Assembly: GCA_963514005.1 (NCBI GenBank)
Contig: OY740799.1
Span: 33,170,001-33,234,000 of the forward strand
DNA from: Raja brachyura
Lineage: Eukaryota
Reading direction: 5' to 3'
Length of the DNA stretch: 64,000 nt
Shown: in pieces, positions 67 to 24,000 of the stretch
How positions within the stretch are numbered: position 1 is the stretch's first letter
Layout of the letters: each line of letters opens with the position of its first letter
Translations under genes and position numbers: made by a program
Notes under the pieces: generated by a model
Database searches by the model: none
Told to the model about the DNA's origin: nothing
What the model saw: only the letters and a program-made list of their open reading frames with translations

Positions 67-3000
67 GTAAGTGATTTTTCATTGCATGTTACATTATAAT
101 TACAGAAATAAAGTGGATAGAAGACTATTAAGATGTGGGAGGTGACTATTCAGTTATTGAGACACAAGAGATTGCAGATGCTGGCAAATTGCTGGCGGAC
201 CTCAGCGGGTCAGACAGCATCTGTGAAGGGAAGGGACAAGAGACATTTTGGGTTGGGACCCATCTTCAGATTGATGAAGTAGGTGGGAGAAAGCTGCAGA
301 ATGGAGGTTGGGGTGGTGCAAAGATACAGTTGGGGGTGGCGGGGGGATGATTAGCAGATGGGTGGAGATAATCAGAGAGTCGTACAGCGTGGCAACTCTT
401 GACGCCCTTTCTTTGGAAACGTTTATCAACTTTACACTTGCAAGCTCCATTGTCCCAGTATCCATTGACTTTTCCGGAAGGAAATTCCAAATGTAACTGA
501 TAGTTAACTTTGTTTGGACTCTATTGCACTGTGGGATAAATACAGCATTACATTTTCTTTAACCAGTTTGTCTTGATTTAATTGATTTAATCACTAGAAT
601 AAGATAATCTTGTAGAAACATGAAATAATTTGTTCAGAGCAGTGTATTAAGAAGTGGACATCATTGAACTTTTCATACATTGGCAGAGAAATTCAAGAGG
701 AATCCAAAGAGATTTTATTAGTATATTAGAATAACTAGGGGGAGAATAGGGCCTTTCAAAGACCAAAAGGGAATCTATATTTGGAGCTGCAGGAGATCAG
801 CGAGGTCCTCAGTGAATATTTCTACTCTGTTTTTACTGTGAAGAAAAAAATGAAGACCAATGAACTCACAAAGGATGTCTTAGGGTTCGACTGCATTACA
901 TTAAAGGAATTGTTGGACATACCTAAAATGTATAAAGGTAGATTAATCACTGGGGTCTGATCAGATGTAATCAAAAACACTGTAGGAAGGTAAAGAAGAA
1001 ATCACAGATTCCCTGGATAAGATGTATGGTTCATCGTTAGGCATGAGTGAAGTGCCCGAAGACATGAAATTTGATTGTATATTTTTGAAGAAGCACCAAG
1101 AAGGTTAATGAGGATTAAAAGCACATAGTTCGCTGAAAGTGATGTTACAGGTGGACAGAGTGATGAAGAAGGCTTTTAGCATGCTAGCCTTCATCAATGA
1201 GGGCAATGAGTAAAGAGTAAAGAAGATGGGGTTTTATGTTACACTTGTGCAAGATTTTGGTGAGGATGCACTTGGAGTATTGTGTTCAGTTCCTGCTAAA
1301 GGGAAGATGCTATTAAGTGGAAAGAGTGAAGAAAATATTTATGAGGATGCTGCCAGGACTTGAGAGACTGAGTTATAGAGAGAGGTTGGGCATGCTAGAA
1401 CTTTATTCCATGGAGACTGAGGGGTGATCTTACAGTGGTATATAAAATCATGAGGGACGTAGATAGGGTGAATGGACACAGTCTTTTTCCCAGAGTTGGG
1501 GAATCAAGAACCAGAGGATTAGGTTTAATGTGAGAGAGGAAAGGTACAATAGGAACTTGAGGGACAACTTTTCCCACACAGAGGGTGTTACTTTAAAGGA
1601 ACATTTATGGAAGTAGTGAGGCAGATACAATAATAACATTTTATGGCATTTGGACTCGCATATGGACAGGACGATTTTGAGGTATATGGGTCAAGGACAG
1701 ACTAATGAGAATAACTACTTTGATGCATCTTGGTCAGCATGGACTAGTTGGTCCTGTTTCTGTGCTCTGTGTCTCTAAGACTCTGGAGCGTCAGGGGCTG
1801 AGGGGGGACCTGATTGAAATTTATAAAATTATGCGATGCATGGACAGTCAGATTATTTTTCCAATGATGGAACTGTCAAGTCATAGAAAGCATAACTTTA
1901 AGATGAGAGGGGGAAAGTTTAAAGGAGATGTTCGGAGCAAGTCTTATACACAGAGTGATAGATTCTTGGAGGGTACTGCCAGGGAGAGTGATGGGAGCAG
2001 ATGTGATTGTGACGTTTAAGAGGCTTTTTGATATACAAATAACCAATAATTGGCATCATGTTTGGCACAGATATTGTGGGCTGAAAGACCTGTCCATGTA
2101 CTGCATTGTTCCATGATATATGTTGTAACTACTAAGAATGCTAAATATGATGTTTGGTGATTTTTTTCTATCATAATGAGATTGCTCTCCAAGGAGAACA
2201 AAATCCAAATAGGGTATTGTTGGAAAAATGCTATTCATTCATTAGAACAATTAACGAGCCGAGTCTTATCTTAGAAATGTAAAACGTGATTTTTTCCCCG
2301 TGGTTTGAAATAAGCATGGTCATCTGCAGTCAGAAAATTATTTCACGATATCTTTGCCAATTGAACGTCTTGAGCAATTAGCCATGCAATTACTAGTGTT
2401 CAATCATATTTGGAGTTAATGGCAAAAATTAAATGGCTTAATGGAATGTTTTTCCTTCTTAGGAGTAAATTGTCCAATAACACAGATTTTTCATCATGAT
2501 GTGAGAGCATGTAACCGTATGTGCAGGTTTCTGTCAAATCCTGATTTCACATGTGAGCTTGAAGATGTTCCAGTTGATGGTTGTGGTTGTCCTGAGGGAA
2601 AGTACATGAATGATGAGAAAGCATGCGTGAGCAGATCAGAATGCCCTTGTTATGTTGATGGTATAAATATACCACCAGGACAAAGTCTTACTTTAAATGG
2701 AATGCAATGGTAAGTGTTTTACATTTTGCTCTGTACATTTTGGATTAAAGTACTTGCAACTATAAAATAAGAAGTATGCTTTTTTTCTTAGTTTATGTCT
2801 CAATGGAGAACTTTCATGCCCTCATGCAACAAATCCACCAATTATACGAGGTAAACAAATTTTAATCTATTTAAACAACTGAAGCACACAATTTAACTTT
2901 GGAATTAAATGAATGCACTTTAGTTGCATTAAAAAATAATTCACTTTTTTTTGTTAGATTGCACGAAACAAAATAAAATATTTTCGAATTGTGTCGCTGC

Positions 3001-6000
3001 TGGTGCATGCAAGAAGACATGTGAAACGCTGTACAAACCATGTGTAAGTGAACATGAGCCAATATTCTGGGTCCATTTGTTCAAAATGAAAGACCAATGG
3101 AGTCATGAATCTCAACATAATTTAGTTTAATAGGTGTCTGTCATGACACAAATGGTGATCCATTCTATTCATCTTTTTCTTGGGCAGTCCCTCAAGATCA
3201 AGTGTGATTTCATTCTATTTTGGTTTTGTGGGTTATGAAATGGCCACTGAGGCCTTGTGGGAATCACATACCCTTTCACAGATGGGCAGATGCTGACTGA
3301 CAGGGCAAGGGTAGTTTAAGTGATCTATTTCTTGCATCACAGTGACGCTGTTTTCCTGATATATGACCTCAACGTTTTCTATATCATCTGCAATGCTTTT
3401 TCCCCCACATTGAGCGGTCCACAGGCCAGAGAATCAGTAAGATTGCTGCATTTCTCCAAGGTGCATTTGAGCACTTCCTCAGATCTTTTCCTATGTCTTC
3501 CTGGTAAATTGTTCCCATGCAGAGCTTGAAAAAGTACTAGACATATGAAAGTCATGAGGCATATGAATGTTGATGCCTGCCCATAGTAGCCTCCTGGGAG
3601 ATGACAATGATGTTGGTTCTTTAGTCCTTACAGCAAATTTGGCATTGGTATTCGTATTGGATTATTATTGTTATATGTACCGAGATACAGTAAAAAACTT
3701 GCTTTTAGTGCTAACGTCAAATACTGTACAAGTATAATTAAGCCATACACAAGCACAACGGATAGTACAAAGAAAAAATAGCAGAGAGCTGAATATAGTG
3801 TTACAGTATTATAGCACTACAGTCACAGAGAAAATGTTCAAGATTTGGAATGAGATAGGTTGGAAGATTGGGACTACACCTTAGCTTTTGGGAGTATTGT
3901 GCAGTAGTCCACTGGCCATGGGGAAGAATCTGTATCTGAACCTGATGGCATGTGCTTTCAAGATTTTGCACCTTCTGCCCAAAACTGACTGAGCTATAAA
4001 TGATTTACAATTTTGTTCACTGCTTTCCTGAAACAACAGAAGTTTAACGGGATCTGGGGGTCCTTGTGCATAGTCAATTAAAGTAAGCATGCAGGTACAG
4101 CTGGCAGTGAAGAAAGCGAATGGCATGTTGGCCTTCATAACAAGAGGAGTTGAGTATAGGAGCAAAGAGGTCCTTCTGCAGTTGTATAGGGCCCCAATGA
4201 GACCACACCTGGAGCATTGTGTGCAGTTTTGGTCCCCTGATTTAAATTGGACATTCTTGCTATTGAGGGAGTGCAGAGTAGGTTTACAAGGTTAATTCCC
4301 AGGATGACAGGACTGTCATATGCTGAGAGAATGGAGCGGCTGGGCTTGTATACTCTGGAGTTTAGTAGGATGAGAGGGGATCTTATTAAAACATATAAGA
4401 TTATTAAGGGTTTGGACATGCTAGAAGCAGAAACATGTTCCCAATGTTGGGGGAGTCCAGAACCAGGGGCCACAGTTTTAGAATAAGGGGTAAGCCATTT
4501 ACAATGGAGACGAGTAAACACTTTTTCTCACAGAGAGTTGTGAGTCTGTAAAATTCTCTGCCTCAGAGGGTGGTGGAGGCCGGTTCTCTGGATACTTTCA
4601 AAAGAGAGCTAGATAGAACTCTTAAAGATAGCGGAGTCAGTGGATATGGGGAGAAGGCAGGAACGGGGTACTGATTGGGGATGATCAGCCATGATCACAT
4701 TGAATGGTGGTGCTGGCTCGAAGGGCCGAATGGTCTACTTCTGCACCTATTGTCTATTGTCTATTGTCTATAGTCTAAGTGCAGATGGGGTTGATAGTTG
4801 AGAGACTAGTTTCTCGTGATGGACTACATCAGAGAGATTACAGTGAGTTGTGTTGCATCACAGCTCTCTGCAATTTCGTATGGTCTTGGGTAGAACTGTT
4901 GCTCAACCAGACTGTGAGGCAACTAAGTTAGGATGCTTTTTACAGTGCATCTGTAGAAGGTAAGTTTTTGGAGCATGTTAAAATTTCTTAGTCTTCTGAG
5001 AAAGTGTGGACATCTGTGTGCTTTTTTGCCCATAGCTTCAACGTGACTGTTCAAAGTGGGTGTAGATGCATTGAGTTAATCGGGAAGGGGCCCATTGTTG
5101 CCAGCGATACTACCTGCCTTCATTTTGTAGCTTTATACCATACGTGTCTTGTCACAATCTATGGGTATCTATGTCACTCAATCTATAAAATGGATAATGG
5201 ATTCATTGCTTGTAATGTGACCTGTTCTGTATTGTCGAGAAAAAGTAGTTTTACAGAACATGTGCACCGTCCACAACAGTCATCTTGAGCTTCCAGTTGG
5301 ATGTCTATTGAACTCTCCTCCCCATCCCTTCATTACCACAGTGAGGCTAAGTGCAAACTAGAAGAACAATACCTCAGATTCTGCTTTGTTAGCTTATGCC
5401 CAAAAGTATGAACATTGAATTTTCCATTCTCACATAACTCTGACACCCTATATTGTTGTCTAATCCCCACCAACCCTCCCAAGTTCTCTGTTCACCTTTT
5501 TCTTCCATTCCCCATGCTCCCTAATCTGGTTCCATCTGCTTATCATTTCCCCCCCTCTTCTGGTTCAACCTATCACCTACTAGATCCTCAATGTGCTCTT
5601 CTGGTTCAACCTATCACCTACTACAGTAGATTCATCAGTGTGCTTTTTTACCCATAGCTCAATGGGGCTGATCCAGGACAAATTGTTGGTGATATTCATA
5701 TCTAGGAATTTTAAGCATTCAACCATCTCCACTTCGGGAACATTAATGCTGATTTGAGGGTGTACCCCATAGCCCTTTTCTGAAATAGCATTGGTAGTAT
5801 TTTATCCTTTGCCTTAACATACCTGTTGCGGGTAGTCCTAGTCTCAGAAGCATATAGGACTGCAGGGTATAGTTTAACTATGTGATGATTACGCATACAT
5901 GCTGTCCAAGTATAGATCTTAATGCCAATTCTGCCAATTTTACAATGTTTTCTCCTTTATAAAGCCAAACCCATGTGTCCCGGGCTGTGTCTGCCCTGAC

Positions 6001-9000
6001 GGTTTGGTGGAGGATTCCAGTGGAAGATGCATTGCACCATCTCAGTGTCCTTGTGTATTTGGAGGTGAAACCTTTGGGCCTGGAGAAACAATCAAAAGGG
6101 ACTGCAATAAGTGGTGAGCCTCGACAAATGTCAAACAAAATAACAGCCCTTAACAGCATAGAATTGTAGAAAGATATTACTATGTCTTCTCTATTATAGC
6201 ACATGCAAAATTGGCACATGGGAATGTACCAATGATCCATGTCCAAAGACATGCCATGTTTATGGAGATGGACATTACATAACCTTTGATGGAAAGCGAT
6301 ACACTTTTGATGGCAACTGTGAATATATCTTTGTTGAGGTAAGATAGAGAACATCATATTCAATGTGCATTTTTTTTCTTTTTCATTTAGTTGTAAACAT
6401 ATATGATAATACTTAAATTTAAAATCTCTGTATTCTTTCTAAGTTTAGGCAGACATGCAAAAGATTATTGTTAATTGATATAATAATTGTAATCAGTATT
6501 TAAAATATTTCACTGAAGTATTTATTAAAAATTTCTCTAAAGTGATTTGTTCATTTAAAATGGATCGGTCCTAGCAACTACTTTTGACATTTGGTCAGCC
6601 TTTGGTTGTTGTTATTGATGGCTGTTGGAGGAGAGGGAGTAATACATGTGTGCAAATGGAATTGTTCACACATTTGCTTGTTTAATCACTCAAAGAATTT
6701 CACACTTCAAAATTATGACAGATGAGATTCTAAACATGAAGCAGCATATTAGATCGCATGTTTAAAAGTACAAATTGTCTCAGACACAATCAGCAAGAAT
6801 GGTTTTGAGTGTAATCTGAAATCTCTGATATTGCTTCTGAGATATAAATGAGAAGGTAAAAATGAGCAAAATGTATTAATCAGATTAAATGATCTGAGAT
6901 TCTATAGTATGAATGGTTCTTCAGCAAACCTTAAATGCTTTTGAAAGTGTTAACTATCACTTGGTGCTAAGGGTTTCAAGAGCTGTTATTATGACCTTGT
7001 CTTTTTCCTTTCCTTTGTCCTTATATTTTCTTGAGCTCAGAGGATAATGAAAAAATATATAAATCTTGATGAACTATAAATTATAGTGGAATTATTGAGC
7101 TGGCTCTGCCAATCCAGATTATGATTGGTTAAAATTACGCTGCACCAATTTAACCAAGTTATCTTAATTTTAGGATCGATGTCTGCAAAAGATTGGCACA
7201 TTCCAAATACTGACCGAGAGTGTTCCCTGCTGTGAAAATGGAGTGACATGTTCAAGAAACATCAGAATCATATTTGAGGTATATGCCCTTTGATTTATAA
7301 CAATTAGAATGCGTAAGATGGCGTTTTTAAATAAAGCATCCAAATGGATCCTTGCAATGAATTAATTTAGTTTATTCAGCATGTTATAAATCAATATATT
7401 TTCAAATATATTCTTATAGGATAAAGAAATAATTCTGTTGAGTGGAAATAGAGTGAGTGAAATATCCCTTGGCAAATACCAGTGCACGGAAAATTTATAT
7501 ACAATTCACAACGTTGGACTTTACTTAGTCATAACATTTTCCAATGGGATAACTGTGATATGGGACAAAAATACAAGATTTTCAATCACATTGGACCCCA
7601 GATGGAAGGTATGTATGATTGTAAATTAAAATGTTTCCTTAATTTCTGTTTATTGATAGAGAAAACATAATGAAAAAGCTTGTGTGGCATAATTCATATG
7701 AGAGACGTGGATGTGGTGTGAAAAATGTTTAACTAAATGCTCGTAGACAATTGAGCTGTAGATGGAATGGACAACACATAATTTGGGACAAAATTCCCTG
7801 AGCAATGCAGCATTGGATTCAAAATAAATTAGATGAAACGATGGTTTTTCATTTATTATTGGGCTCATTATCAGCTATTCAACTTTAAGAAGCAGCTGAG
7901 CAATAACCTACATTTCTTTGTATAAGGACAATATTAAATAGTACTTAGAAGCATTGCCAGCAGTTTAATAGGAATTGTGAAAAGGGTAGGGAGCTGCATT
8001 GTTTAACAATAGAGAAAAACTGGCACAAAATAACTATGGAAAACGGAGTTGAGCACAGATGTCCACAAAATTTTTAAAGGTGCACTAGAATGGAAAAGAT
8101 GTGAGGGGCAATGGTTATTATGGTAATTCTTCCATTATGTTAAAATTCAGATGCAGCCCAAGGCCTTGGTTGCACAAAATTAGCTTGATAGGTCTATCAC
8201 ATAATTGAGGGAAGCTTGATTAGGGAGTTATTGACACTGTGGTGACACACTAACACTCTATCAGATTTCTTACATGTGGTGGTAGGAGGAAATGAGAAGG
8301 AAGAGAAGGGAAGGGATCAGAATGGTGCTATTATGCATGGTAAGGGAAGGTTGAGACAAGCAGATGAAGGGTTGACAGAGTCCAGTAAATCAGCTGAGAA
8401 TGGATCATTGTGATGGGGAGTGGAGGGGGGGGGGGGGTGGTGTTAGGGTTTTAATGCAGATTAAAGGGTCAGGGTCTTAGTGGAGATTGACATTGGGTAG
8501 TACATTAAATTCGGCAGGTGACTTCGGCATTCGGCATTATATGACTTTCATACAGCTCTGCCAAAATAGCAAAATGGTAGAGAGGGTGTTGCCTTATTGA
8601 TTAAGGAGAATGTCATGGCATTAGTCCAAGATGACATTACTGATAGTTAAAAAAAACAAATAAAAGTAATAATGTTAAATATATATTAAAAGATATTTTG
8701 ATAGGTACATGGATAGGATAGGTTTAGAAGGATATGGGCAAATGCCTTCTAAGTGTAGATGGAGCATGTTGGTCGGTGCGGAGAAGTTGAGCTGAAGAGG
8801 CCTATTTCCACATTGTATGACTCTATAACTCTAATAGAAACCAACGTCCTCCTGTGTGGCTTTGAGGCGAAATTGACATTGGGGTCACAAGACTGGCTAT
8901 TGACAGGAAATGTCCTATCAAATTCTCAATACAGTGAAAAATATCCCAGAAATTATTATCACACTTCCCTCATAGACAAAACTTCTCCATGTGCACAGAT

Positions 9001-12000
9001 TGAATAAAACACCAACAGGGAACTGGAGATTTTTACGCAAATATGTTTTTATGACATCTTTTGTATATAAGCTTTGGATTTGTCAAGTTGGGAATAACCA
9101 ATGTGAATCTAAAAAAACTAAAAATACTGGAAAGTCTTAGCAGGTTAGGCAGCATCTGTGAAAAGTGATGCAGTTCAGGTCAAAGACCCATCCTCAGACC
9201 CATCTTCAGCCTTCGACCTGAAGAATTAACTGTTTATCTTTCCATTAGTATCTCCTGACCTGTTGTATTTTTGGAGGGTTTTGTTTTAATTTCAGATTTC
9301 CAGTATCTTAAGTTTTTTGATTTTCATTTAATGTGAACCTGAATCTCCCAATGCAGTGTTCCAGGATATAACGAGAGGCCAAGGTGAAAACCTTAATTGG
9401 ACAATCCCAACTCAAAATCTTGTCTCTAAGTCAATTGGCAGTGTGGAAAGGCAAAACAGAATCCACATGGGTGGTGCAAAAGGCTTCCTCAAACCTGCCA
9501 AATGGCTACCATTAAACATACGTATACATAAAGTAAAACCTTTATATGAAATGATAAATCACTTCAATGAAAGCAAAAATCCAAGAGGAATTGTTATAAA
9601 ATTACCCCTTTGATGCCATCTATTTTCAAGAGTCTGCAAGTACTGTATATATTTAAAAACAACAGTTCACATACAGATTTTCAATTAGCATTTATGAGGT
9701 TGACATTTCATTCAAAGGATGGCTTGATGCTTTGAGGAGTTAAATAGTAACAGTAAAAGGTGTACAATGTATGTATATGTGGTAAAGATCATGAGGATTC
9801 AAAGTCAAGAGTTTGTTGAAAATAAGGAAGATGAAATATAATTGGATCAGATAATAGTCTTGAATTATTCTTCATTTTAAATTATACATTTAGCAGTTTA
9901 ATCTTCTTTTATATACTTGCGCCAACTTTTATCATGAAATGTGTGACAATGGTGAAGGCCTTCAACCAATAGATTAGTCAATCAATCCAGAACTGTCAAA
10001 AATCCCCATATTGTATAATTTAGCAGTTTATTGAAAATACTTTGAATTTTCAACCATACTAATCCATAGGTAATGAAGAGTGAAATAACTTGCTTTATTT
10101 ATTGCCATTCACAAACTAAATTATAACCTCTTTATAGCCAATGTCTTTGGTTCTGGTTGTGATGTAAAACCCTCTTGATGCTTCACTCTCTCTATGATTG
10201 TGTTTATTTTTGGAGTAGACAAAAGCTGTGCTTCTGAAGTGCGGAACACTGAAAATTATATAAAAGATCAAAGACTAGGTCAAAAATTAACTAATTAAAT
10301 AATTGTAATGATTTAATTCATTAATTATGTTTGTATGGTGCCATACTGGATCTCAAGAGGAGACTATGTGGTTTATTTCAATGAAAGATTGATAATTCTG
10401 ACATTTGTATTGGGTTAACTTGGAAAAAGTAGGAAATTTTAATTGTAAATGTAGAATAGTAACCATTATTTTGCTTTTTTTACATACATAAGAATAAAGT
10501 TTGTGGCCTTTGTGGAAATTTCAATGAAAATATTGAAGACGACTTAACAACGAAGGGGAACTCCTTGGTGACCAGCTTTATGACCTTTGGGAACAGTTGG
10601 AAGTCCATGCAGTCATGCTCTGACACAGTTAATGAAATATACCCATGTGATAACAATCCATATTGTTTAGCATGGGCTCAGAAGAGGTGCAGCATAATTA
10701 CTGGCCCAGTCTTTCAAGCTTGTCATAAAGTGGTAAGATGCCAGTTAAATTTGAAATTTAAATAGAATCCATAATGCAATCATGATTTCTGACATTGTGG
10801 CTCTTTATCAGGTTAACCCAATCGCATTTTATGATGCTTGTGTCCAAGAAGCTTGTGTTTGTGATATGGAGGGAAAATACCAGGGTTTGTGTACTGCTAT
10901 TGCTGTGTACGCAGAGGCTTGCAACAAAGCTGATGTTTGCATTCGCTGGAGAACCCCTGAATTCTGCCGTAAGTCTAAACTTCTGTATTCCTTGTAGAGA
11001 ACAATTAAGGTATAAGGGCTCATCAACATATTTTTATAGATAGCAGAACACATTGATCCACAGAGTACCATAATTATTCAGATTGTTGTTCCAGATTCCC
11101 GCATCTGCAGACTCTTGTGTTCTCAAGGTCCAGATTGATGCTTGGTGCTGTTTAAAATCTGTGTCATTTTGTAATTGCAATAAATAAACCATATTTCCTT
11201 CTTCAATTCCCTGCCTCTTTTAACACAAGATCCTCCATCTTCTACTTGGTTCAGTAAACAGTGCACAATTAATTATCGAGAGTATTCTCCAAACAGAATC
11301 AATGTTTTAAGAAGATTGGCCTTTATTGCCTTCCATCACAGTGAAGAATGTGGGGAATCTGCTGTGTTGGTTGTTTATGTTAACTTTTATGTAGTTGTGT
11401 GTCTTGTTGCCTTTTTAAAAATATGGCTGTATGGTAATTTGAATTTCATTGCACCTTAATTAGTACATGTGACAATAAACTGACCTTGATACCTTGATTC
11501 TGTTTGGAGGATACTCTCGGGTATTTATTTGTGCACTGTTACTGAACCACTTTTTAGCTCACGATGGATAACATATCAAAACTGATTTTGATCCTTGCAA
11601 TGAAAGGCAGGTCATTTTGATCCTTTCAGTGAAAGGCAGGTCACTATCACTGTACACTTTTAATCCTTGATTCATCAAGAAAATACATTCAGAACCTCAC
11701 GCAGCCGAATATTCCAACACCTGCTGATCTGCAACTAATCCACAATATTTGTTTCATTAAATCTCATCTGTTTGCTTATTAATGGGATTTGTGGCTATTA
11801 ATTTGAAGATGATGTTCTGCCAACATTCAGTCTCTATCCTCCAAGTTTGGCATACACTGAAGAATAAATGCACGTATCATTCTATCTATCAATGTTACTG
11901 TTTTATCTAAAAAAGATACTTTGCAGGTTGATTGTATTGGTGCTCATGACAATTCTCCTTTACCTACTACATAAGTCAACTCATTTATCAACATGTATAC

Positions 12001-15000
12001 TCTTTGGAATAGAAGAATAAAGTTGTCCGAGTATCTGCCATGTTAAGGACAGATGTCTGAGAGTCCAACACTCCAGTTCACAGACCAATATCTATAAAAT
12101 AAATATACAGTGACTATTTGCCATGCAATATTGTGCTCATTTTGGGCAATGAATAACCAAGCCAAAATCACAATTTGATTGTTTCTTTTATTCTCCAGCT
12201 GTATTCTGTGACTATTATAACAGTCTTGGTGGCTGCAGTTGGCATTATCAGCCATGTGGAACAACAACAACAAAAACATGCACAAGGAAAAAGTTCTCTG
12301 CAAACCTAGAAGGTGCAGTTTAGAATGTATTCAAATATGTCACAATCATTTTACAATTTGTTTTAAACAATACTTTTAGGTTAGACTAAGATTCAGTTCT
12401 TAAAAATAAAAATCATAATAATCAATTCATTATGCAATTCATTACACATTATACTCAGTTAAAGTATCTATATATTTTGATTAATCTTCAAAAAAAATCA
12501 TGCGTATCCTGTCATTCGTTGGAAATTTGTGCATATTTAGAATAGAGATACATTTTATTGGTGTCAAGGTCTGCTGCATTTACAACATTCCTGTTTATCT
12601 TGATGGTCATTTTTACTTCTCACTACTTTAGGTTGCTATGCCAAGTGCCCAGATAATGCTCCTTACTTGGATGAAAATATTATGAAATGTGTTACACTAC
12701 CACAGTGCACATGTTATAATGATGGGAGAATACTACAACCTGGTGAAACAACAATAAATGATTGTGAAGAATGGTAAAGTAGTCATATCAGTAAATGTAT
12801 TTATCACTGTTCTAATATTGAAAGAAAAAAACAAGATAAATGCCAAAAAATTGGATTTTACAAATATTCCCTTAATAGTGACATTCGCTATTTTAATAAT
12901 TGAAATATAAAATGCAGTCTAGGATAATTTCACACCTGAACAAAGGCCAAAATAATTGTTTTCAAATTACTTCCCACCCACCACCCTCCCTCACCTACTT
13001 CAGTGACTTTAATCTACAGTTTGCAGTTATATTCATTTTCTGTTCCTTCTGCAAAAAGTTCTTCATTTTCTTTATTCTCTCTGGCTAACAATAATCAGTG
13101 ACTATTCTTTCTGAGAACCCATCCCTTAATAATTATCCTTCATTGTTACACTATATTGTAATATTTGTTGTGAATTATGAACATTATGTGGGCTATTGCT
13201 CCTTTAAAGGTTAACTTCTCCATGAGTTGCAACAATAAAGTGCGGGTGGTCTGTGATTACCCATGAATAAACCAACAAAATGTATTAAAACTTCTTATGT
13301 TTCATTCTGCTATTAGTAAAGAATCTATTCCCTTGAACAAACATTGCCTCCATTACATTTTTAAATCCTCCTGTGGACTATGGTTTTTGGTGGTGATTTC
13401 AGAGCTAACAGAGTTTTTACCTTTCCAATTCCATCTTTCCAGAGAGGTTGAACCATTGCAACACAATATGTCTTTAGACTAGTTTGTAGTTCTTTAGTTT
13501 GTCTTATTTGTAACATCTTTCTTTTTGTTGACAGTACATGCCTTAATGGAATCACTACTTGCCAAAGTAAGTAGTAACTTTCAGCATTCACCTGTTAAAA
13601 TAATGCATATTTGTAATTAATTATTGTTTTTCGATAAAGGAGAATGTTTGCTTATTTGCAGTGCAATATTAATAGTATCAGCAGTTGTAGTTATATCTTC
13701 AGTTTAAATATTTCCAAAACACTACTTATCAAATGCGAGACTTGAATAATTAGCACATCTGTAGAAGTTGGTGGGAGTTGTTGAAGACATGCCAAACTTG
13801 CTAAGCCTTCTGAGGAAGTAGAGGCATTGGTGTGCTCTCATAGCCTTTGCTTTGATACGGCTAGTTCAGGAGAAGTTGCTGGTGATATTTACTGCTAGGA
13901 ACTTGAAGCTTTCAACCATCTCTATTTTGGCACTGTCAATGTATGTGTAGCACTTTGCCTGACTTCTGAAGTTGATCGCTATCTCCTTTGTCTTGTTGAC
14001 ATTGAGAGAAAGGTTATTAACGCGACACCTGGTTACAAGTTTCTCAATGTCCTTCCTGTACTCCATCTCCCAATTATTTTGGTATCTGTGCCACTACGGT
14101 GGTGTCACCCATGAATTTGTAAATTTAGTTAAATTTGTACGAGGCTGCACAATTGTGGTGAATAAGGAGCAATGAAGGGAGCTGAGAACACATTCTTGCG
14201 GAGCACCCATATTGGGGATTATTGTAGAGGATGATTTGTCACCTACAACTTGTACTGAAGTCATAGCAGAGCTAAGAAACACTCATGCATGCAGGCAAAA
14301 TGTACCCAACATAGATAACCCCTGCATTATAGAGTGATTGCATTTGCTGTAATCGTGATTTTCTGCAACACATCTCCTTTTGCTCTTGAATCCCATGTTA
14401 TAAGTGGAGAATGTTTTTCTCTCATTTTAAACCAATTTATCAGTGATGACAAGAGAATTCTTATTTCTCTTGTCATCAGTGATGACAAGAGAATTCCACC
14501 ATTCTTATTTAACATTTGAGACCAACATTAGACCCAGATGAAACAGCAAGTTTCATCAATTTTTAATCACTCAATATTGTACGGCAATAAGATTTGAACA
14601 TGATTTTGTTGATTGGGTTAGGAGTCCCAGCTGAGCCGCCCACCTTTGCCATGCTCCCTCTAGTCCTATGATATGTGAACTCATGACTCAGACCGTAGCA
14701 CTGCCGGGGATTAATTTGTGAGTCCTACTATCTGATGCACAAGGCTCGCTGAACATGAAAGGGTTTACTAAGTGGGTTTATTTGGGAAAGGAATGGAATT
14801 CAAGGGTTGGGATTTATGGGAGAAAAGTGACGTAGAAGGAATTAATGGGGCAACACAGTGAAGTCTGCTCACCTCCCTGTGACCACGTGGCTTTCCTCTG
14901 TGTCCTCCTACATCTCAAAGACGGCGGGTTTGATGGTTCATCGGCCTCTGTAAGTTGCTCCTAATGTGTAGGGAACAAATGAAAAAGTGGGATAACATAG

Positions 15001-18000
15001 AAGTAATGTTAATGGATAATCGATGGTCAGCATGGACTCGGTGAGCCGAAATGCCAGTTTCCATGCTGTATCTTTAAACTAAACTACAGTTAAACCTCAG
15101 TGGCTGGGAGAAGTGGAGTAAACACTGAGGGATTACTTTAAGGAGATGGCCAGGGCTCCCCACATTGCACTCACAGGTGAAGTGCGCAGCAACACTGCAC
15201 TCTGAGACATCTGTTTATGTGTTTTTGGTCTGAAGAAGACATGGCTGTCACTGCCAACCCCTTTGACACAGTGACAAAACATAAAATTTGTTGTTTTGTT
15301 TGCATTTCTATATATATATTTATTTGTTTATTTTTCATTTTGGTAAGTGCAAATTTTAATCTGTATCTCAAATGTTTTGGTAGTTGACTACGAAATGGAT
15401 AAGGGCAAATTTCTATTACTTAAATGACAGTAGCATGGTTGTTGCCTTGAGGAAATATCAGAAATAGATAAGGACTGAAGTTTTATTATGTACGTGTTTA
15501 TAACAACAGGAATAAAGACCACAACTGTTCCATCTACAACACTGTTGACCACAACTCCACTTACATCAACTTCAACAATTTCTACACCAATCACTAGCCC
15601 AGGTAAGGTGATACTAGTTACAGGTTATGACATGTAATATTTACAATTTGGTAAGAACAGATTTCAAAAGATCAGAGGTGAAACTGGACATTGGTATGTC
15701 TGTACTTTTGGACATAATAATTATAAATGGGATTCATAAGCAGGTTATCACTTTCCAACACATTTCATGATGTTGGCGATCAGTAACTTTAATCTGCATA
15801 CTCCACCTGGGTATCAAAGAGATGATAAACATTGTGTAAAAAGGGCAAAAGAGAGTCTCTCCTGGCTCCACAAGGCAAATGTATGATTCAGTCAAATAGA
15901 TCTCATCTCAGTTCACTTTCACAGCTCCTGCCTCATAGGAACAAGCCCAAAGCAACTGTAGATGTAAGAGGCATACACCTCTTTGATATCAGCATATCAA
16001 AATGATGAAAGGGATAGACAGAGTTGACGTGGATAAGCTTTTCCCATTGAGGGTAGGAAAGATTCAAACAAGAGGGCATGACATGAGAATTAAGGGACAG
16101 AAGTTTAGGGGTAACATGAGGGGGAACTTCTTTACTCAGAGAGTGGTGGCTGTGTGGAATCACCTTCCTGCAGAAGTGGTGGAGGCAGGATCGATTTTAA
16201 CATTTAAAAGTAAAGTGGGTAGGTATATGGACGGGAAGGGAATGGAGGGGTATGGTCTGAGAGCAGGTAGATGGGACTAGGGGAAAATAAATGGTCGGCA
16301 CGGACTGGAAGGGCCGAGAAGGCCTGTTTCCGTGCTGTAATTGTTATATGGTTATATAGTTATATGGTTAAGAGGCAATTTGTATGGATAAAGTCTGAGC
16401 TTTGGCTTCTGTTTTAAACTCGCTTGTGAAAAGCACATAAGGTCAGGGTTTCATGTTGCCATCTTGCCGAAATGTTGATAAGGATAATGAATGTATATCA
16501 GGAACATCCTCACATAGAACAGTACAGCACAATAACAGGCCTTTTGGATCACACAATGCTCAGTTCAATTAATCTCCTCTGCCTGCAACTAATCTCTGCC
16601 TGCACAATTCTCCATTTTGTGGCTGGGCGACATTTAGAGAGGATGTGTGTATGGTGGGTGTTGAGTGCCCGGCCCACTGCTGAGGGTGGTGATGGAGGCA
16701 GATACAATTGTGGTGTTTAAGAGACTTTTGGATAGACACCTGGATATGCAGGAAATGGAGGGTATGGATTATGTACTGGCAGATAAGGATTGGTTTCGGC
16801 ATCATGTTCGCCACAGACATAGTGGGTTGATGGACCCGTTCCTGTGCTGTATTGTTCTATGTTCTTTTTGAGTAAAATTGACAACTGAATATAATGTCTG
16901 TTTGATTATATTGAGCAATTCTAAAACTGTTTTTTTTTTAAAAGGGGGATAGTAAGATACATTTTTCAGAAAGCTTATTCAGAGAAATGTAAATGTTAGT
17001 TTTAAATATTCATCAGTTTTAACTTCAGTTTTTGTGTTGTTACTATTTTAGTGGGGACCTACATTTCTGAGTGGCAGAAATCAGCCAATGCCCAGCCCCA
17101 TCCACACTAGTCCCACCTCTACATTTGCCAATGTCCTTCTAAACCTATCCAATCTATGTACCTATCCAAATGTTTCTTAATATATTTTTTTAATTTTTAC
17201 TTTAATTTGGGTTTTTTTAAACTGCCAGTAACATCATCTCAGACTAATGCCATGGCATTCTCCTTAATCAATAAACCTACCATTTTGCTATTTTGGGAGA
17301 ACTGCATGATTCTATGACTGAATGTTGGATCTCAATGAAAATATGAACTAAAACAGATGTGATATCAAACTCTGCTAGAGAGTTAACGTGTCATCACAGC
17401 GTCAATAAATATTTAATTCTAACCTCCCTCAATATTGTGATAGACTTATCAAGCTGACGTGAAGGTCAAATCTACAATACCCAATTTCTTGCAGCCAAGG
17501 CCTTGGGTTACATCTGAATATTGATATAATGGAAGGATGATCATAATAACCATTGCCCCTTCACATCTTTTCAATTCTAGTACACCTTTTAATTAAGAAT
17601 CTTGTAGACATCTCTGCTCAACTCTGTTATCCACAGTTATTTCCTGACAGTTTCCCTCTGTTAAATAATGTTGATATTGTTAAATATTGCAGCTCCCTAC
17701 CCTTTTACAAATTCCTCCTAAACTGATAGCAACGCTTCTAAGTACTATTTAATATTGTCCTTGTACAAAGAAATGTACCATAAATGTTGCAGACAGACCT
17801 GTTAGAAATATATGAAAATAAAGCAGCAGACACAGCGTGGACAGTCAGAACCAGGGCGGAAATAGCAGAGCATAGCCTTAACGTGAGAGGGGCATTGAAA
17901 TGAACATGGAGGTGGATTTGAGTAACTATCAAAGAACTGTAAAGGGATAATGCAGTTACCACTCTTGCTCACAAAATAATGTTCTATTGAAAGTATGGTT

Positions 18001-21000
18001 TCCTTGTGATGCAGATAAATCACCCAGCACATTATATTGCTGAATGGAGTATGGTTATAATTTGCTGAAATTATGTTATGCAATCATTTATCCGGTTAGT
18101 TTTCTACTGCCTCAGTTGTGCCATTCATCGTTGAATGGTCATGAATGCTTTTACTTTCTTAAGAAACAATAACAGTACCAACCATAACTGAGTTTACCAC
18201 CAGTCACACAACTGGTGGGTGATGCCTTCATTCAATATTAATTCATGGATATTTTAAAGCAACTATTCTTTTAAGCACTGCAAAGTTGAACTTTATTGGC
18301 TTGCCACAATCGTTTTAATTTCAGCGCAGTAGTGTTCTATCCTTCTCCAGAATCTTAAGGGTTCACTCGAGGTTGGTGATATGGCACAGAACAGATTAAA
18401 TATATCGCCTTCATTAACATTCGGAATTATTTCTGTATCAAGCACCAGAAATTTGGGTTGCCATACAGCCATACGAATAAAAAAGGAACACAACACACGA
18501 TAGAATTTAACATAGACATCCCCACACAGCAGAATCAACGTTTCCCACTGTGAGGGAAGGCAATAAAGTTCAGCCATCTTCCTCTTTGGTTACCCGTGGT
18601 CGGGGGCGCCAATGTTCAGGCCCTCGCCGGGATGATCGGAACTCCGACGTTGGAACGGAGAACTCTCTCAGCGGCTTGGAGTTCCGAACCGGCCACCTAC
18701 CGGAGACCAGAGCTCCCGATGTCCACAGGCCGTGCTTGGCGGAGATTCACACTGGCGTCCTCGCCAAAGGGACACCAGGACTCCAACACTAAGAATACCT
18801 CCAAAACATGCTTTTAAACGGACTAAAAATAACAAAAAGATGAAAAAAAAAGACAGAATGCAAACAGAGGCTGCCTTCAAATGGCCCCCCCCTGTGGTAA
18901 TGTAAATGTAATCATACAACTGAAATCTGAGATACCATATTGGAGAGAGATTAAAGACCAAATGTGATATACAAAACCAGCTGATTATCTGAAAGCTAAA
19001 TTTACTCTTGGGTCCTAAAGCCATATGCGTAGTTGGAAAATGAGGTACTGTAACTTACACTGAGTACTGAACTTTATTGGAAATGTGTTGGAGATACAAA
19101 GTGGAAACGTAGGGAACATTTAAATGACTGACATATAAAATCTCATAAATAACATATACTACAGTAAATCTGTTTTGGTCTCCACTCTGCTGTGGATCCT
19201 CCCTTTCCTTTTCTTGTATGCTCACTGCCTATCCTGATTATTTTTAAGATTTTATTTGTTTCTTTGCAGTAACACTTTTTCCAGACATACCCCTTGTTCT
19301 TTCTTCTCCTTTCCTTCCATCTTTCAGTCACTATTTGGGTCACTCAATCTCTCCTGGTCTCCAGCCCATCACATCATCCCCTATTTCTCTGCACTGTAAA
19401 TTTTGTTGCATTCTAAATTTTCCAGTACTTATAAAATAGAATCAGTCTCAAATGTTAATTCTTAACAGATGCTGCTTGACCTACCAAGTACTCCCAGTCA
19501 TTTCTGCTTTCATTTTTCTTATGTCTGAAATCTGCTTGAGCGGTATAAGAATTGAGTTGACTTTGTGATTTGAATTTGTTTGTTATTTTCCAGAAGAAAC
19601 ATCAACTGTTACATCAACCAGCATTCCTTCCACAACAGGTAGGTGTTGGCTTTTTCAATATATATTTATTTTGCAACCTCAACTGATCACAATGAAAATC
19701 CATTTGTTTTCTTCTCTATCATCGTCATAAACATCAACGTGCACGGTGCCTTACAATGCTATGTACGACAGTGATCATAACTTCTACTGAAGTGTGGATG
19801 GCCGTTGGCTCGCTTGGAGCTAATCTGCCTTTTGACAGGTCTTGTTTTTGGTCCTGCAGTGGGTTCACTGCCCCCTCCTCACCTGGCAAACTAGGTGGGG
19901 GAGACGGTTTAGTCACCGACTATCCGACCATGGAGCAGGTAGCACGGGATTACATGGTACCCGTGGCGGGTGGTAATCCCCCCTATCTTCTCTACCTTTT
20001 TGATATATTAGACCCTGTTCCCTGTTCCCCATTTTTACTGTCATAAGTAAAATGTTCGGTCACTCACAATGGCAGCTACTTTTATCATCATGCGGAAATT
20101 TGAACTCCCTTCTTTATAAGAATATGATAGGTAACTTCTTTATTTGGGCATGCGAGGAAACTGTTTGGCCCATTGTGTCCTTTTCAACTTCCAACAGCAC
20201 AATGTCATGTCCCCTGCTTATTTCCCTGTATTTCTACAACATATTCTCTTCCACATCCACTCTCCTTTGATTCTTTTGGTATTGGTCTATACAAAGGAAT
20301 AATTTACAAGAGCCAATTAATCTACCAGCATGTCTCTGGGTGACAGGAGGAACTCAAGGAAGTACAGGGAGCCAATATGAGCTCCATACAAACAGCACCT
20401 AATATCAGGATTGAACTTGGATCTCTCAAGCTTTCAGGCAAAGGCAAGGCACAGCCTTCCACAGCTTGTTGAGAGTGGTCTTCTTTTCATTATAATCTCT
20501 TTCCTCCTTTAACTCTTGATTCTGTTTTATGAATTGACAGCAAACGTGTTCCTTTATCATATATTATCCTGGAGCAGCTACCTTTTTGCCATTTCCCTCT
20601 TGCCCACTAATTAAACTCTTCTGCATATATGTTATACCTTTTCACCATATACAGTACGTAGCATGTTTCAAGGTGATATGGTGAGGCAACGCAACTACTC
20701 CAATAATGTTCTTCAATAGCACGCTGAGACCAACCCATCAAAGTGGAAAGAATATCCGGCTGTTAAAATCATGCAATAGTTAGTGCACAGCTGCAGTCAG
20801 CTGCCTGATAAGTGACATCTCACGTTTGTGCTTTATGCTTTTTCTCTATTGTTCTGTTCTGCACTGGCAATGAATGTTTCCCTACTTGAAGTTGTATCTT
20901 AATTCAGATCAATCAACAGTTCCCCAAACATATTGTTATTATTCCCATTTTACTGTTCCCATTTTCATTTAAACTGTAATTTGTAAGATTCATTTTGATG

Positions 21001-24000
21001 CACAACCATGTTTCTCAAATCTTGTTTTTTATATTTATGTTTATATTTTCCACTATGTAGTGTTTTTTTACAAGTTTGCCTTATGTTTTCTTTCTTTACA
21101 TTACAGTGCCATACTGTTTGGGTGTATGGTCTCCTTGGTCTAATAATGATACACCAACACCGTCATCTCCAAATGATTATGAATTGTTGATACCATATGG
21201 CACTCAATTGTGCCCATCTTCTTCTGATAAAATTACCACCATTCAGTGCCAATTTGCCAAACATCCTGAATGGCCACTAAGTGTATCGCCAGATGTTGTG
21301 ACCTGCAATAAAGAGATAGGATTGATGTGCACATTCTCTGGATCTCCTTCTGGCCACTTTTGTAATGACTACAGAATTAGAGTTTGCTGCGAGCCAACTG
21401 AGACGACAACTGTCCCCACGACTACAACTGAGTCTACCACCAGTCCCACGACTGGTGAGTGATACCTTCTCCAGTACTTGTTAACAGTCGTTTTAAAGGA
21501 AGGACAACTGTGTCCAAAGTATGTCCAGCTTGTGCTGGAATTGAACCAAATACAAATATTACTGCTCAATGTTGCGATGATTATAAATTTGCAGTGGCTT
21601 TTGTTGATGTTATTCCACAACTTCTCTTTAATCAATATATGCTGATTTTGTTACTACACTTAAAAATGTGCTTTTCTTCGTTGAATATAAAGGACATGTA
21701 TGCATTTGTTTACAGAAGAAACAACAACAACAACAGCTACGACCACCACAGAATCTACCACCAGTCCTACAACTGGTAAGTGATATCTTATCTCAATGTG
21801 CACTCATAGTTTTTTTTTATCACAGCTGAGTTCATACACACACGTTCCCATCCTTGCTTCAAGTTTCGCAATTTCATGATCCCATTTTAGAGTCTGTGGG
21901 TTCAGTCTTGATGGTCCTCTGATGCTGGATAGAGGTAGTGCAGCACTGACAATACTGTGCTGTTCAGCTTGAGATTTTGAGCTGGGTTTGTGAGTGTGCT
22001 GTTGTGACTGCGGTATATTTTGTGGCCAATAGCAAAGAACAGAAACATCTCTCAACTACCATGAATAATAACGATGATTACAACAAAATTTCTCAGGAAA
22101 TATTTTTAAGTTCTATAGTTTATCGGATGTAGATATGAATAAGTAGTTTCTGGTGTTCCCTATATTTCAGCTGTGACCATATTTTAATACAATTTCTTGC
22201 TGCAAGTCCTTTGCAAGATAGGAAGTATTGAAAGGAGTTTATCTCGACTTTACACAATCTCTTTTGAAATAGTCCAATTACCACCTGCATTTGTCGGTCA
22301 TTCAAAATCTACGATTCAACATGGATGATTTAATTGTCCATGAATTTGTTTCTCTTTCGAAGAAACATCTACAACAACCAGCACAACTGAGTCCACAACC
22401 ACTTCCACAACTGGTGGGTGGTGATATTTTCATTTGTAAATCTTTTAAACACAAGCTCACCTATACATATACATACTATATCACATAATTTAAAACAAAT
22501 GTAATGCCTTGGTAGACAAAAATGCTGGAGAAACTCAGCAGGTGCAGCAACATCTATGCAGCGAAGGATATAGGCAACGTTTCGGGCCGAAACCCTTCTT
22601 CAGACCCTTTCGGCCCGAAGCGTTGCCTATTTCCTTCACTCCATAGATGCTGCTGCACCCGCTGAGTTTCACCAACATTTTTGTCTACCTTTGATTTTCC
22701 AGCATCTACAGTTCCTTCGTAAATAAATGTAATGCCTTTATTATTTTCCAGAAGAAACCACTCCCACGGTGACACCAAGCACCACCACCACCTACACAAC
22801 AGGTGAGTGATCACCTCTGTCAGTAGCTTATTACCAGCCGTAACGTTCAGTCATTCAATTTCAACTTCTGCTTGCCTTCAGTTTAATCATTCTTCAACTT
22901 GCATGTAATGCTTTTATTTGCAGAAAAAACAACAATAACAACGCCAGGGCCACCCACAACCACGTCTACCACCAGCCCCACAACTGGTGAGTAATGCATT
23001 TTATCAATCATTTTAACACAAATATGCTCACAGTACCACTTGCAGGTTGTGACAATGATGATCACTCTTGCCTTGTGCAACACAATTTTACCTCAGCAGC
23101 TCATGGGATGTTATCGAATTTCAAAGTCTTGAGATTCAAACTAGAATTGTGTTTTAATGCAATGCAAAGGAACGACAGTAATGCCCAAAGTATGTGCTGG
23201 AGTTGAAACACATACAAATATTACTGCTGAATGTAGTATGGATTGTATATTTGCAGTGACTATGTTGAAATATTATTCCACAACTTCTTTTAATTTGTGC
23301 AATATATGTTCATTTTGTTACTCCTCTCTCAAATGTGTAATTCTTCAAGTTGAATGTAAAGGTCGTGTATGTATGTGTTTACAGAAAGAACTACACCAAC
23401 AGTGACAACAACAACAGAATCTACCACCAGTCCCACAACTGGTGAGTGATAACTACTCTCAATGTAAACCCATGGGTTTTTATATCACAGCTAAGCTCAT
23501 AAACATTATTTTCAGTTGCACTACTTTCCCTTCCTTTCTTCAATTTCACTTCATCCATAACAGATGAGTGATCGCCTCTGTCAGTATATACTCACTGGCT
23601 GTTGGATTTGGTTGTTCAATTAAAACTTCTACTCATCTTCAGTGAAAGTCTAATAATTTGACCTTTCCACTACAATTTCCAATAACAAGCATTGGTCTAA
23701 ATATTGAATGAAGGGTCCTGAAATTTATTTCTGCAGACAATTATTAGAATCCTCTTCTTTAAATGATGGCAACTATGATGATCAGCCAGCCTGTGTGAGT
23801 CTCAATAAAGCATCTCTCATGGGTAATTAAGCTATGTAATTCATAATAAAAGTGCAATGGTAGGTTTTCTGGTGATTGCCATAAATAAGTGGGTACACCA
23901 CACTGAAATGCATTGAAGTCTTTGAGGGAATGAAAACTGAGCAAAAATCGTGCAGGACTATACTATTTTGTTGCTGCTGCATCTCTACTCGTGATGGTTC

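Follow-up and report, generated by a model that had tools for sequence, protein, structure and literature searches.

The mucin domains of human MUC2, MUC5AC, MUC5B and MUC6 are single exons (PMC9712336; this and the other papers given by accession are cited from excerpts of their text). For chicken Muc13, a multi-exon domain with abundant proline, threonine and serine residues (PTS domain) has been proposed to allow length control by splicing (Lang et al. 2006, PMC1552070). Chicken MUC2 is a gel-forming mucin with a multi-exon PTS region and CysD domains, in which exons 28–32 have phase 1-1 and one in-frame PTS splice variant is described (PMC3549977). Here we describe a 64,000-nucleotide stretch of the skate Raja brachyura (assembly GCA_963514005.1, contig OY740799.1, positions 33,170,001 to 33,234,000 of the forward strand), hereafter the window. 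The window lies within a gene for a gel-forming mucin with three VWD domains, a PTS region containing 14 CysD domains, a further VWD domain and a cystine knot. The original prediction for this locus held that the PTS exons are symmetric phase-1 cassettes and that combinatorial alternative splicing could set PTS spacer length and CysD number. We find that the symmetry is complete and that there are signs of some exon skipping. The step from symmetry to regulation is unsupported: symmetric exons are what survives tandem duplication, and the array itself gains, loses and fuses exons in the DNA.

Phase symmetry of the array exons

The array exons fall into eight classes, A to H (Table 1); C encodes a CysD domain and the others are microexons. 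All 57 array exons in the window are multiples of 3 in length, have phase 1-1, end in G and are free of stop codons. The count of 57 agrees with the predicted one, and a control scan that assumed neither phase nor length recovered exactly the same eight exons in unit 1. In the whole array, which was followed into the neighboring stretches, 110 of 110 exons have lengths divisible by 3, are in phase 1-1 and contain no stop codon, and any subset of these cassettes keeps the frame, as had been proposed. Short symmetric exons of one phase, a trait of splice-diversified cassette arrays, are therefore found throughout. In contrast, only one of the 12 upstream non-repeat exons in the window is 1-1, and four are symmetric in any phase. 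The symmetry exceeds chance, but the 57 exons are not independent, because eight classes were copied seven times and the classes themselves are related.

The first bases of the exons should also be noted. In the window, all 50 microexons begin with AA, which rebuilds a Glu codon at each junction as predicted, while the seven CysD exons begin with TG to give a Val junction. In the whole array, 91 exons begin with AA, 14 with TG, four with TT and one with GA. Beyond the window, five microexons thus lack the Glu junction: four F' exons (a 39-nt type-2 exon) give Val and one A exon gives Gly. The claim that every exon is a multiple of 3 ending in G before a GT donor stands for the 57 and the 110 exons, but it missed a decayed ninth cassette, I. 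Cassette I is present in 11 copies in the whole array, and its donor is dead (GT to AT) in nine of them. The two copies with an intact donor are a 48-nt copy at 81,323 and a 49-nt copy at 104,889, the latter of which would shift the frame if included.

Duplication of exons and units in the DNA

A duplicated exon leaves the reading frame intact only when it is symmetric. In human genes, 108 of 118 highly similar neighboring exons agree in a symmetric phase (PMC3632108). In the skate array, the exon classes cross-match each other, and their intron flanks are related as well: D to H on both sides, A to D and H upstream, and C to D'' and F to I and F' downstream (z about 8–51 against 40–60 shuffles). 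The length differences among variants of D, and among those of G, are in every case multiples of 3, and the array contains in-frame fusions of D with E (75 nt) and of D with F (90 and 93 nt), whereas, in nine type-1 units, seven of the eight intron indel rows are not divisible by 3. These differences show a frame filter acting in the DNA. Cassette B is deleted in unit 11.

The same phase is found in other mucin genes. In three paralogous genes on the same contig, phase 1 is the starting phase of all 31 candidate PTS and CysD exons, and the length of 27 is divisible by 3; the other four are two 374-nt CysD exons, closing each scanned series, and two 64-nt calls. By arithmetic on Table 2 of PMC3549977, exons 28–32 of chicken MUC2 (198, 27, 477, 192 and 603 nt) are also 1-1. 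Given the kinship by duplication, the frame filter at the DNA level and the shared phase in the paralogues and chicken MUC2, the symmetry needs no selection based on splicing.

The whole array ends at 104,814 in window coordinates, and the core is about 87 kb long. It consists of 10 type-1 units (about 6.48 kb) and four type-2 units (5,266 bp), all of which bear a CysD exon, and the unit make-up varies within the gene from type 1 through a hybrid of units 10 and 11 to type 2. The nine type-1 units compared differ pairwise by 2–32 substitutions, most pairs by 9–32, and carry unit-specific indels, while units 4–7 differ by only 2–5 bases in 6,478. Between type-1 and type-2 CysD exons, 19–22 codons change the residue and two do not. 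Positive selection on CysD between the unit types was not significant (pN, the proportion of nonsynonymous differences, about 0.09–0.10; pS, that of synonymous differences, 0.044; flanking introns 0.02–0.07; p 0.26–0.47). The introns contain high-copy interspersed repeat fragments (22511–22720, 18474–18830 and 15990–16360) with very high depth in all runs, and fragments of this kind within the unit were duplicated together with it. The exit exon carries the upstream intron flank and the first bases of the D/H cassette, and an array acceptor therefore either derives from the first C-terminal exon or was copied onto it.

Splicing of the array exons

The original prediction called for a count of junctions for all exon pairs. 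Exon joints were examined in the contigs of X1, one run of a related organism that was guessed to be RNA and that differs from the window by 3, 0 and 0 bases in the three unique exons compared. X1 was taken to be spliced, since exons are connected in its contigs at GT..AG sites that remain unjoined in all three DNA runs. Fifteen of its 1,165 joints are listed, and depth does not rank their levels. Nine of them were set aside: seven involve repeat elements only, one starts in a repeat element and ends in F (22670 to 22780, without GT..AG), and one is the unit junction of the DNA. The remaining six are exon-to-exon joints, all in frame and none present in the three DNA runs. Four of the six fit the assembly order (B-C, D-E, E-F' and G-H). 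One, from D to the position 3 nt into E, is ambiguous, since its best in-order match is 23/29 on each side. The last leads from D, or from the similar end of H, to the second F acceptor; it is in frame, skips E relative to the assembly and has no in-order counterpart (best left side 21/29). X1 also contains a loose end, in which E is joined to the first F acceptor, and a backward join from 22399 to 21715.

Public models of related genes were compared in the same respect. RefSeq isoforms of the shark and ray paralogues differ by single cassettes of 13–20 residues or by one CysD exon of 108–127 residues. Of the 68 isoforms compared, 53 include peptides that the longest listed isoform does not contain, 15 have no new peptide, and nine lack a CysD; new junction peptides are found in all 13 Leucoraja isoforms compared. 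The comparison covers eight of 10 clusters with at most 15 members each, and S. canicula and Mustelus, with mixed differences from the listed reference, were left out. The entries, named inconsistently as mucin-2-, 5AC-, 6- or 19-like, are automatic models whose read support is not visible. Taken together, the D-to-F joint in X1 and the isoform models that skip a cassette or a CysD indicate that some in-frame skipping is likely in the mucin array.

The splice sites vary in strength, as had been noted. The acceptors of the 110 exons are CAG (86) or AAG (24), and the donors are GTGAGT (62), GTGGGT (21), GTAAGT (13), GTAGGT (5), GTAGCT (5) and GTGATT (4). Tandem AG acceptors 3 nt apart are present in 43 of the 110 exons (classes B, D, D'' and F). 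One part of this variation is a single substitution: the B donor is GTAGCT in units 4–8 and GTAGGT in units 1–3 and 9–10, and GTAGCT is seen in the DNA run X2 but not in X4 or X6. This pattern across units and runs is as expected of a single mutation that arose recently and was passed on by duplication. The weakest pair of sites (AAG with GTGGGT) belongs to A and E, yet in X1 both ends of E are spliced. Counts of matches to U1, a crude measure, give 6 for both E and A and fail to distinguish exons in use from those not in use.

Cassette A looks decayed in its sequence. Six of its 16 residues lie outside T/S/P/E/K/A/R, as compared with 0–2 in B–H, and its best match in the models of another skate, Rhinoraja longicauda, is 7–10/17; these models go from the unique exon directly to B. 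X1 has no depth at three listed places inside A and no listed contig across A, which we did not use as evidence.

Mechanism and alternative explanations

We consider it most likely, with a probability of about 0.68, that the array arose by DNA duplication with a frame filter and is spliced mostly in order with some in-frame leak. Blocks of exon plus intron would have been duplicated in the DNA, probably driven by unequal crossing-over, and only the blocks that kept the frame would have survived, leaving the symmetry. Splicing would for the most part follow exon order, and some in-frame skipping would occur without regulation. The allele would then be the main determinant of mucin length and CysD number, and leaky skipping and the 3-nt acceptor wobble may add a mild spread in length. 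The CysD domains may serve as cross-links of a non-covalent kind by analogy with human MUC2, for which such a role is reported. Several points weigh against this reading. Its RNA support comes from one run of another organism, in contigs whose levels cannot be ranked. The D-to-F joint is a well-supported row among those listed, and skipping may thus be common rather than minor; the 53 of 68 isoforms with new peptides and the nine without a CysD likewise mean that it may be widespread. The persistent weak splice sites could be under selection, and depth ratios are not copy numbers.

The leak could instead be control, in which cells pick subsets of cassettes or units by tissue or condition to tune the PTS spacer, the CysD number and the mesh size of the gel. 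Besides the open frame of every subset, this is favored by the out-of-order in-frame joint and the use of both F acceptors in X1, by the isoforms of the paralogues that differ by one cassette or one CysD exon, and by the proposal that CysD dimers set pore size (PMC3195396). We regard it as unlikely, since X1 is one RNA-like run without a tissue comparison, a regulator could hardly tell units 4–7 apart, and the splice-site variation traces to single recent mutations. Surveys of chicken MUC2 by tissue and infection, moreover, gave one characterized in-frame variant and no large-scale change, with no change detectable on infection according to the excerpt (PMC3549977), and the 15 isoforms without a new peptide could derive from reads of another repeat copy. 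The argument that a single-exon variable-number tandem repeat (VNTR) cannot do the same was overstated, as a human MUC2 transcript without a PTS domain is cited in PMC3549977. At the other extreme, splicing could be strictly constitutive, with every live cassette included in its order, A and I non-functional, and the unusual joints due to mis-mapping among similar exons or to the unit make-up of the other organism. The organism of X1, for which there is no matching DNA run, could have a unit without E in its own genome; unit make-up differs within the gene and from the Rhinoraja model, whose first unit passes from a D-like to an F-like peptide, and exon ends are alike, H having 27 of the last 29 nt of D. 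This account is improbable, because the D-to-F joint lacks an in-order counterpart here, no D-F deletion was found among the DNA joints listed, and the new junction peptides occur in every Leucoraja isoform compared. Because the units are near-identical, short reads cannot settle the question of splicing.

The number of near-identical units could also be partly an assembly artefact, in which case 57 or 110 exons would overstate the real gene. Units 4–7 are indeed almost identical, and X2, which is identical to the window in unique DNA, has a ratio of unit to unique contig depth of 6.9 against 10 type-1 units; the ratio, which is not a copy number, is 10.8 in X4 and 6.2 in X6, different samples under one organism label. 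However, all pairs of units differ by at least 2 bases and most by far more, with indels of their own, the unit junction is present in all three DNA runs, and heterozygous alleles would also lower the ratio. We therefore hold an artefact to be very improbable, and the symmetry is in any case independent of copy number. The three depth ratios are a weak hint that the array is itself a VNTR, variable in copy number.

Gene identity and lineage

The gene spans at least −15,067 to 127,083 in window coordinates, as followed in the window and the neighboring stretches of the 2.7-Gb genome. It comprises, in order, three VWD units, the unique PTS exon, the 110 array exons, the exit exon, the further VWD and a cystine-knot-like exon (Table 1).

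Table 1. Positions of exons and repeats of the skate mucin gene, in window coordinates.
Feature	Position	Strand	Remarks
12 non-repeat exons, N-terminal TIL/VWD3/C8 region	2463–13566	+	mixed phases; 89% identity over 552 aa to P0001
Unique first PTS exon	15510–15602	+	93 nt, phase 1-1; 26/31 residues match P0001
Genomic tandem array, ~6.48-kb units	17951–64000	+	7 units in window; period near 6,478 bp
Cassette A	18164–18214	+	51 nt, AAG acceptor, GTGGGT donor; most decayed of eight classes, inclusion uncertain
Cassette B	19594–19638	+	45 nt, tandem acceptor; B-C joint in X1
Cassette C, CysD domain and PTS tail	21107–21454	+	348 nt, phase 1-1
Cassette D	21716–21775	+	60 nt (63 or 66 in some units), tandem acceptor; D-E joint in X1
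Cassette E	22363–22413	+	51 nt, AAG acceptor, GTGGGT donor; acceptor and donor both used in X1
Cassette F	22752–22802	+	51 nt, tandem acceptors 22752 and 22755, both present in X1
Cassette G	22924–22986	+	63 nt; G-H joint in X1
Cassette H	23385–23441	+	57 nt; G-H joint in X1
Decayed cassette I, after H	23516–23563	+	48 nt; donor GT to AT in all 7 window copies
Array exit exon	105,605–105,657	+	53 nt, phase 1-0

The exons of the three N-terminal VWD-C8-TIL units tile from −15,067 to 12,771 in a tblastn search; the signal-peptide exon was not located with this query, residues 35–1175 of P0001. Exon 10493–10732 gives a Pfam VWD match, and a spliced X1 contig covers upstream non-repeat exons by joining 10495–10731, 10811–10968 and 12630–12772. 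A second spliced contig of X1 at 12630–12773 has 22 differences in 144 nt and represents a paralogous mucin in the same run. The central PTS region consists of 110 exons encoding 3,410 residues, and the microexon classes B–H are 79–94% T/S/P. The CysD exon, with 14 copies in the gene, matches Pfam Mucin2_WxxW (E 1.2e-14). The fourth VWD begins at 106,730 (Pfam E 2e-14), and the Cys_knot match at 126,925–127,083, a 53-residue exon piece, has E 9e-5 and 23.1 bits, slightly below the 24-bit cut-off. The frame is open for 4,146 residues without stops from exon 2463 through the array to exon 106,962 in the C-terminal part. Judging from its domain content, the product would be secreted, O-glycosylated and gel-polymerizing.

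The closest protein among the matches listed is XP_078275996.1 (P0001), a mucin model of Rhinoraja longicauda, which is 89% identical over 552 N-terminal residues and contains the same B and CysD cassettes. In the CysD, identity to this model is only 59%, against 89% in the N-terminal part. On one Rhinoraja contig, this mucin has three nearly identical models (P0001–P0003), of which P0001 ends inside the repeat; they may be gene duplicates of recent origin or split models.

In a 42-row tree, the N-terminal part falls in a clade of 25 shark and ray rows, joined to coelacanth and mammalian MUC19 at 95/85, and the branch parting the MUC2 and MUC5AC rows from this side has support of 100/100; the tree is midpoint-rooted, contains no MUC6, otogelin or VWF rows and uses database names as labels. 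The MUC2/MUC5 type is defined by CysD within the PTS region and a fourth VWD, and mammalian Muc19 has no fourth VWD (PMC4948705). The skate gene has the MUC2/MUC5 layout, with its 14 CysD domains and fourth VWD, but does not group with MUC2/MUC5 in its N-terminal part; it groups there with MUC19 but has the fourth VWD and CysD. On this sequence evidence, we call it MUC19-related rather than MUC19, because of the fourth VWD and CysD, and file it under neither the MUC19 nor the MUC2/MUC5 name. LRRK2 adjoins MUC19. A search of the genome with COR-A gave two matches, neither on the contig of the mucin, though such an exon-by-exon search is insensitive.

The VWD3 exon has ten matches with 56–100% identity on the same contig at 30.6–33.2 Mb and five more distant ones (39–52%) on contig C18 at 44.5–45.7 Mb. 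MUC19-related mucins thus appear to have expanded in this genome. By comparison, three Muc19 paralogues are reported in ghost shark (PMC4948705). One paralogue at 30,673,000–30,683,000 on the same contig has six densely spaced CysD exons of 342–354 nt, with a single PTS exon of about 60 nt between each.

Comparison with known systems

The skate gene is a well-resolved example of a multi-exon PTS/CysD core, about 87 kb and fully assembled, where few assemblies resolve such cores. If regulated skipping were true, the 2006 proposal that splicing sets length would become testable in a mucin of the gel-forming type, whose pore size is proposed to depend on the spacing of CysD. A wider picture can be drawn, though we doubt it: sharks and rays might have an expanded cluster of MUC19-related CysD mucins, seen here as ten VWD3-exon paralogues on this contig, with phase-1 cassette cores, and might tune cross-link spacing and mesh by tissue through the regulated omission of PTS cassettes and of entire CysD exons, atop repeat variation at the allele level. 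No paper on the exon layout of this elasmobranch mucin family, and none on the exon structure of human MUC19, was found in a search of literature outside subscription journals. Human MUC19 probably contains numerous short exons and occurs in several splice variants.

Many of the RefSeq mucin models of sharks and rays resemble the skate gene in having series of isoforms that differ by one cassette or one CysD. Chicken Muc13 differs from it as a transmembrane SEA mucin with one exon per 20-residue repeat and no CysD in the description available (PMC1552070). Chicken MUC2 is closer in type, but its exons are mostly 190–600 nt, and it has four CysD domains, belongs to the MUC2 lineage and, in the excerpt, shows no units of 45–66-nt microexons (PMC3549977). 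Among Xenopus skin mucins (FIM-C.1, FIM-B.1), FIM-C.1 is described as polymorphic by alternative splicing, and MucXS, a skin mucin of X. tropicalis, has a multi-exon central domain that alternates Cys-rich and PTS repeats (PMC7177656, PMC5789918); as described there, these mucins belong to other lineages and contain TFF or other Cys-rich modules in place of CysD. In Schistosoma SmPoMuc, an exon with its flanking introns is tandemly repeated and homogenized as in the skate array, and the micro-exon genes of Schistosoma likewise have exons that are short and for the most part divisible by 3 in length, and they show splice variants (PMC2576457, PMC10526429). These are parasite proteins described without VWD or CysD, and diversity of transcripts is shown by cDNA there but not in the skate gene. 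Earlier publications on mucins of birds and frogs contain both the array layout and the idea of control by splicing, and the skate gene is a further example of this known design.

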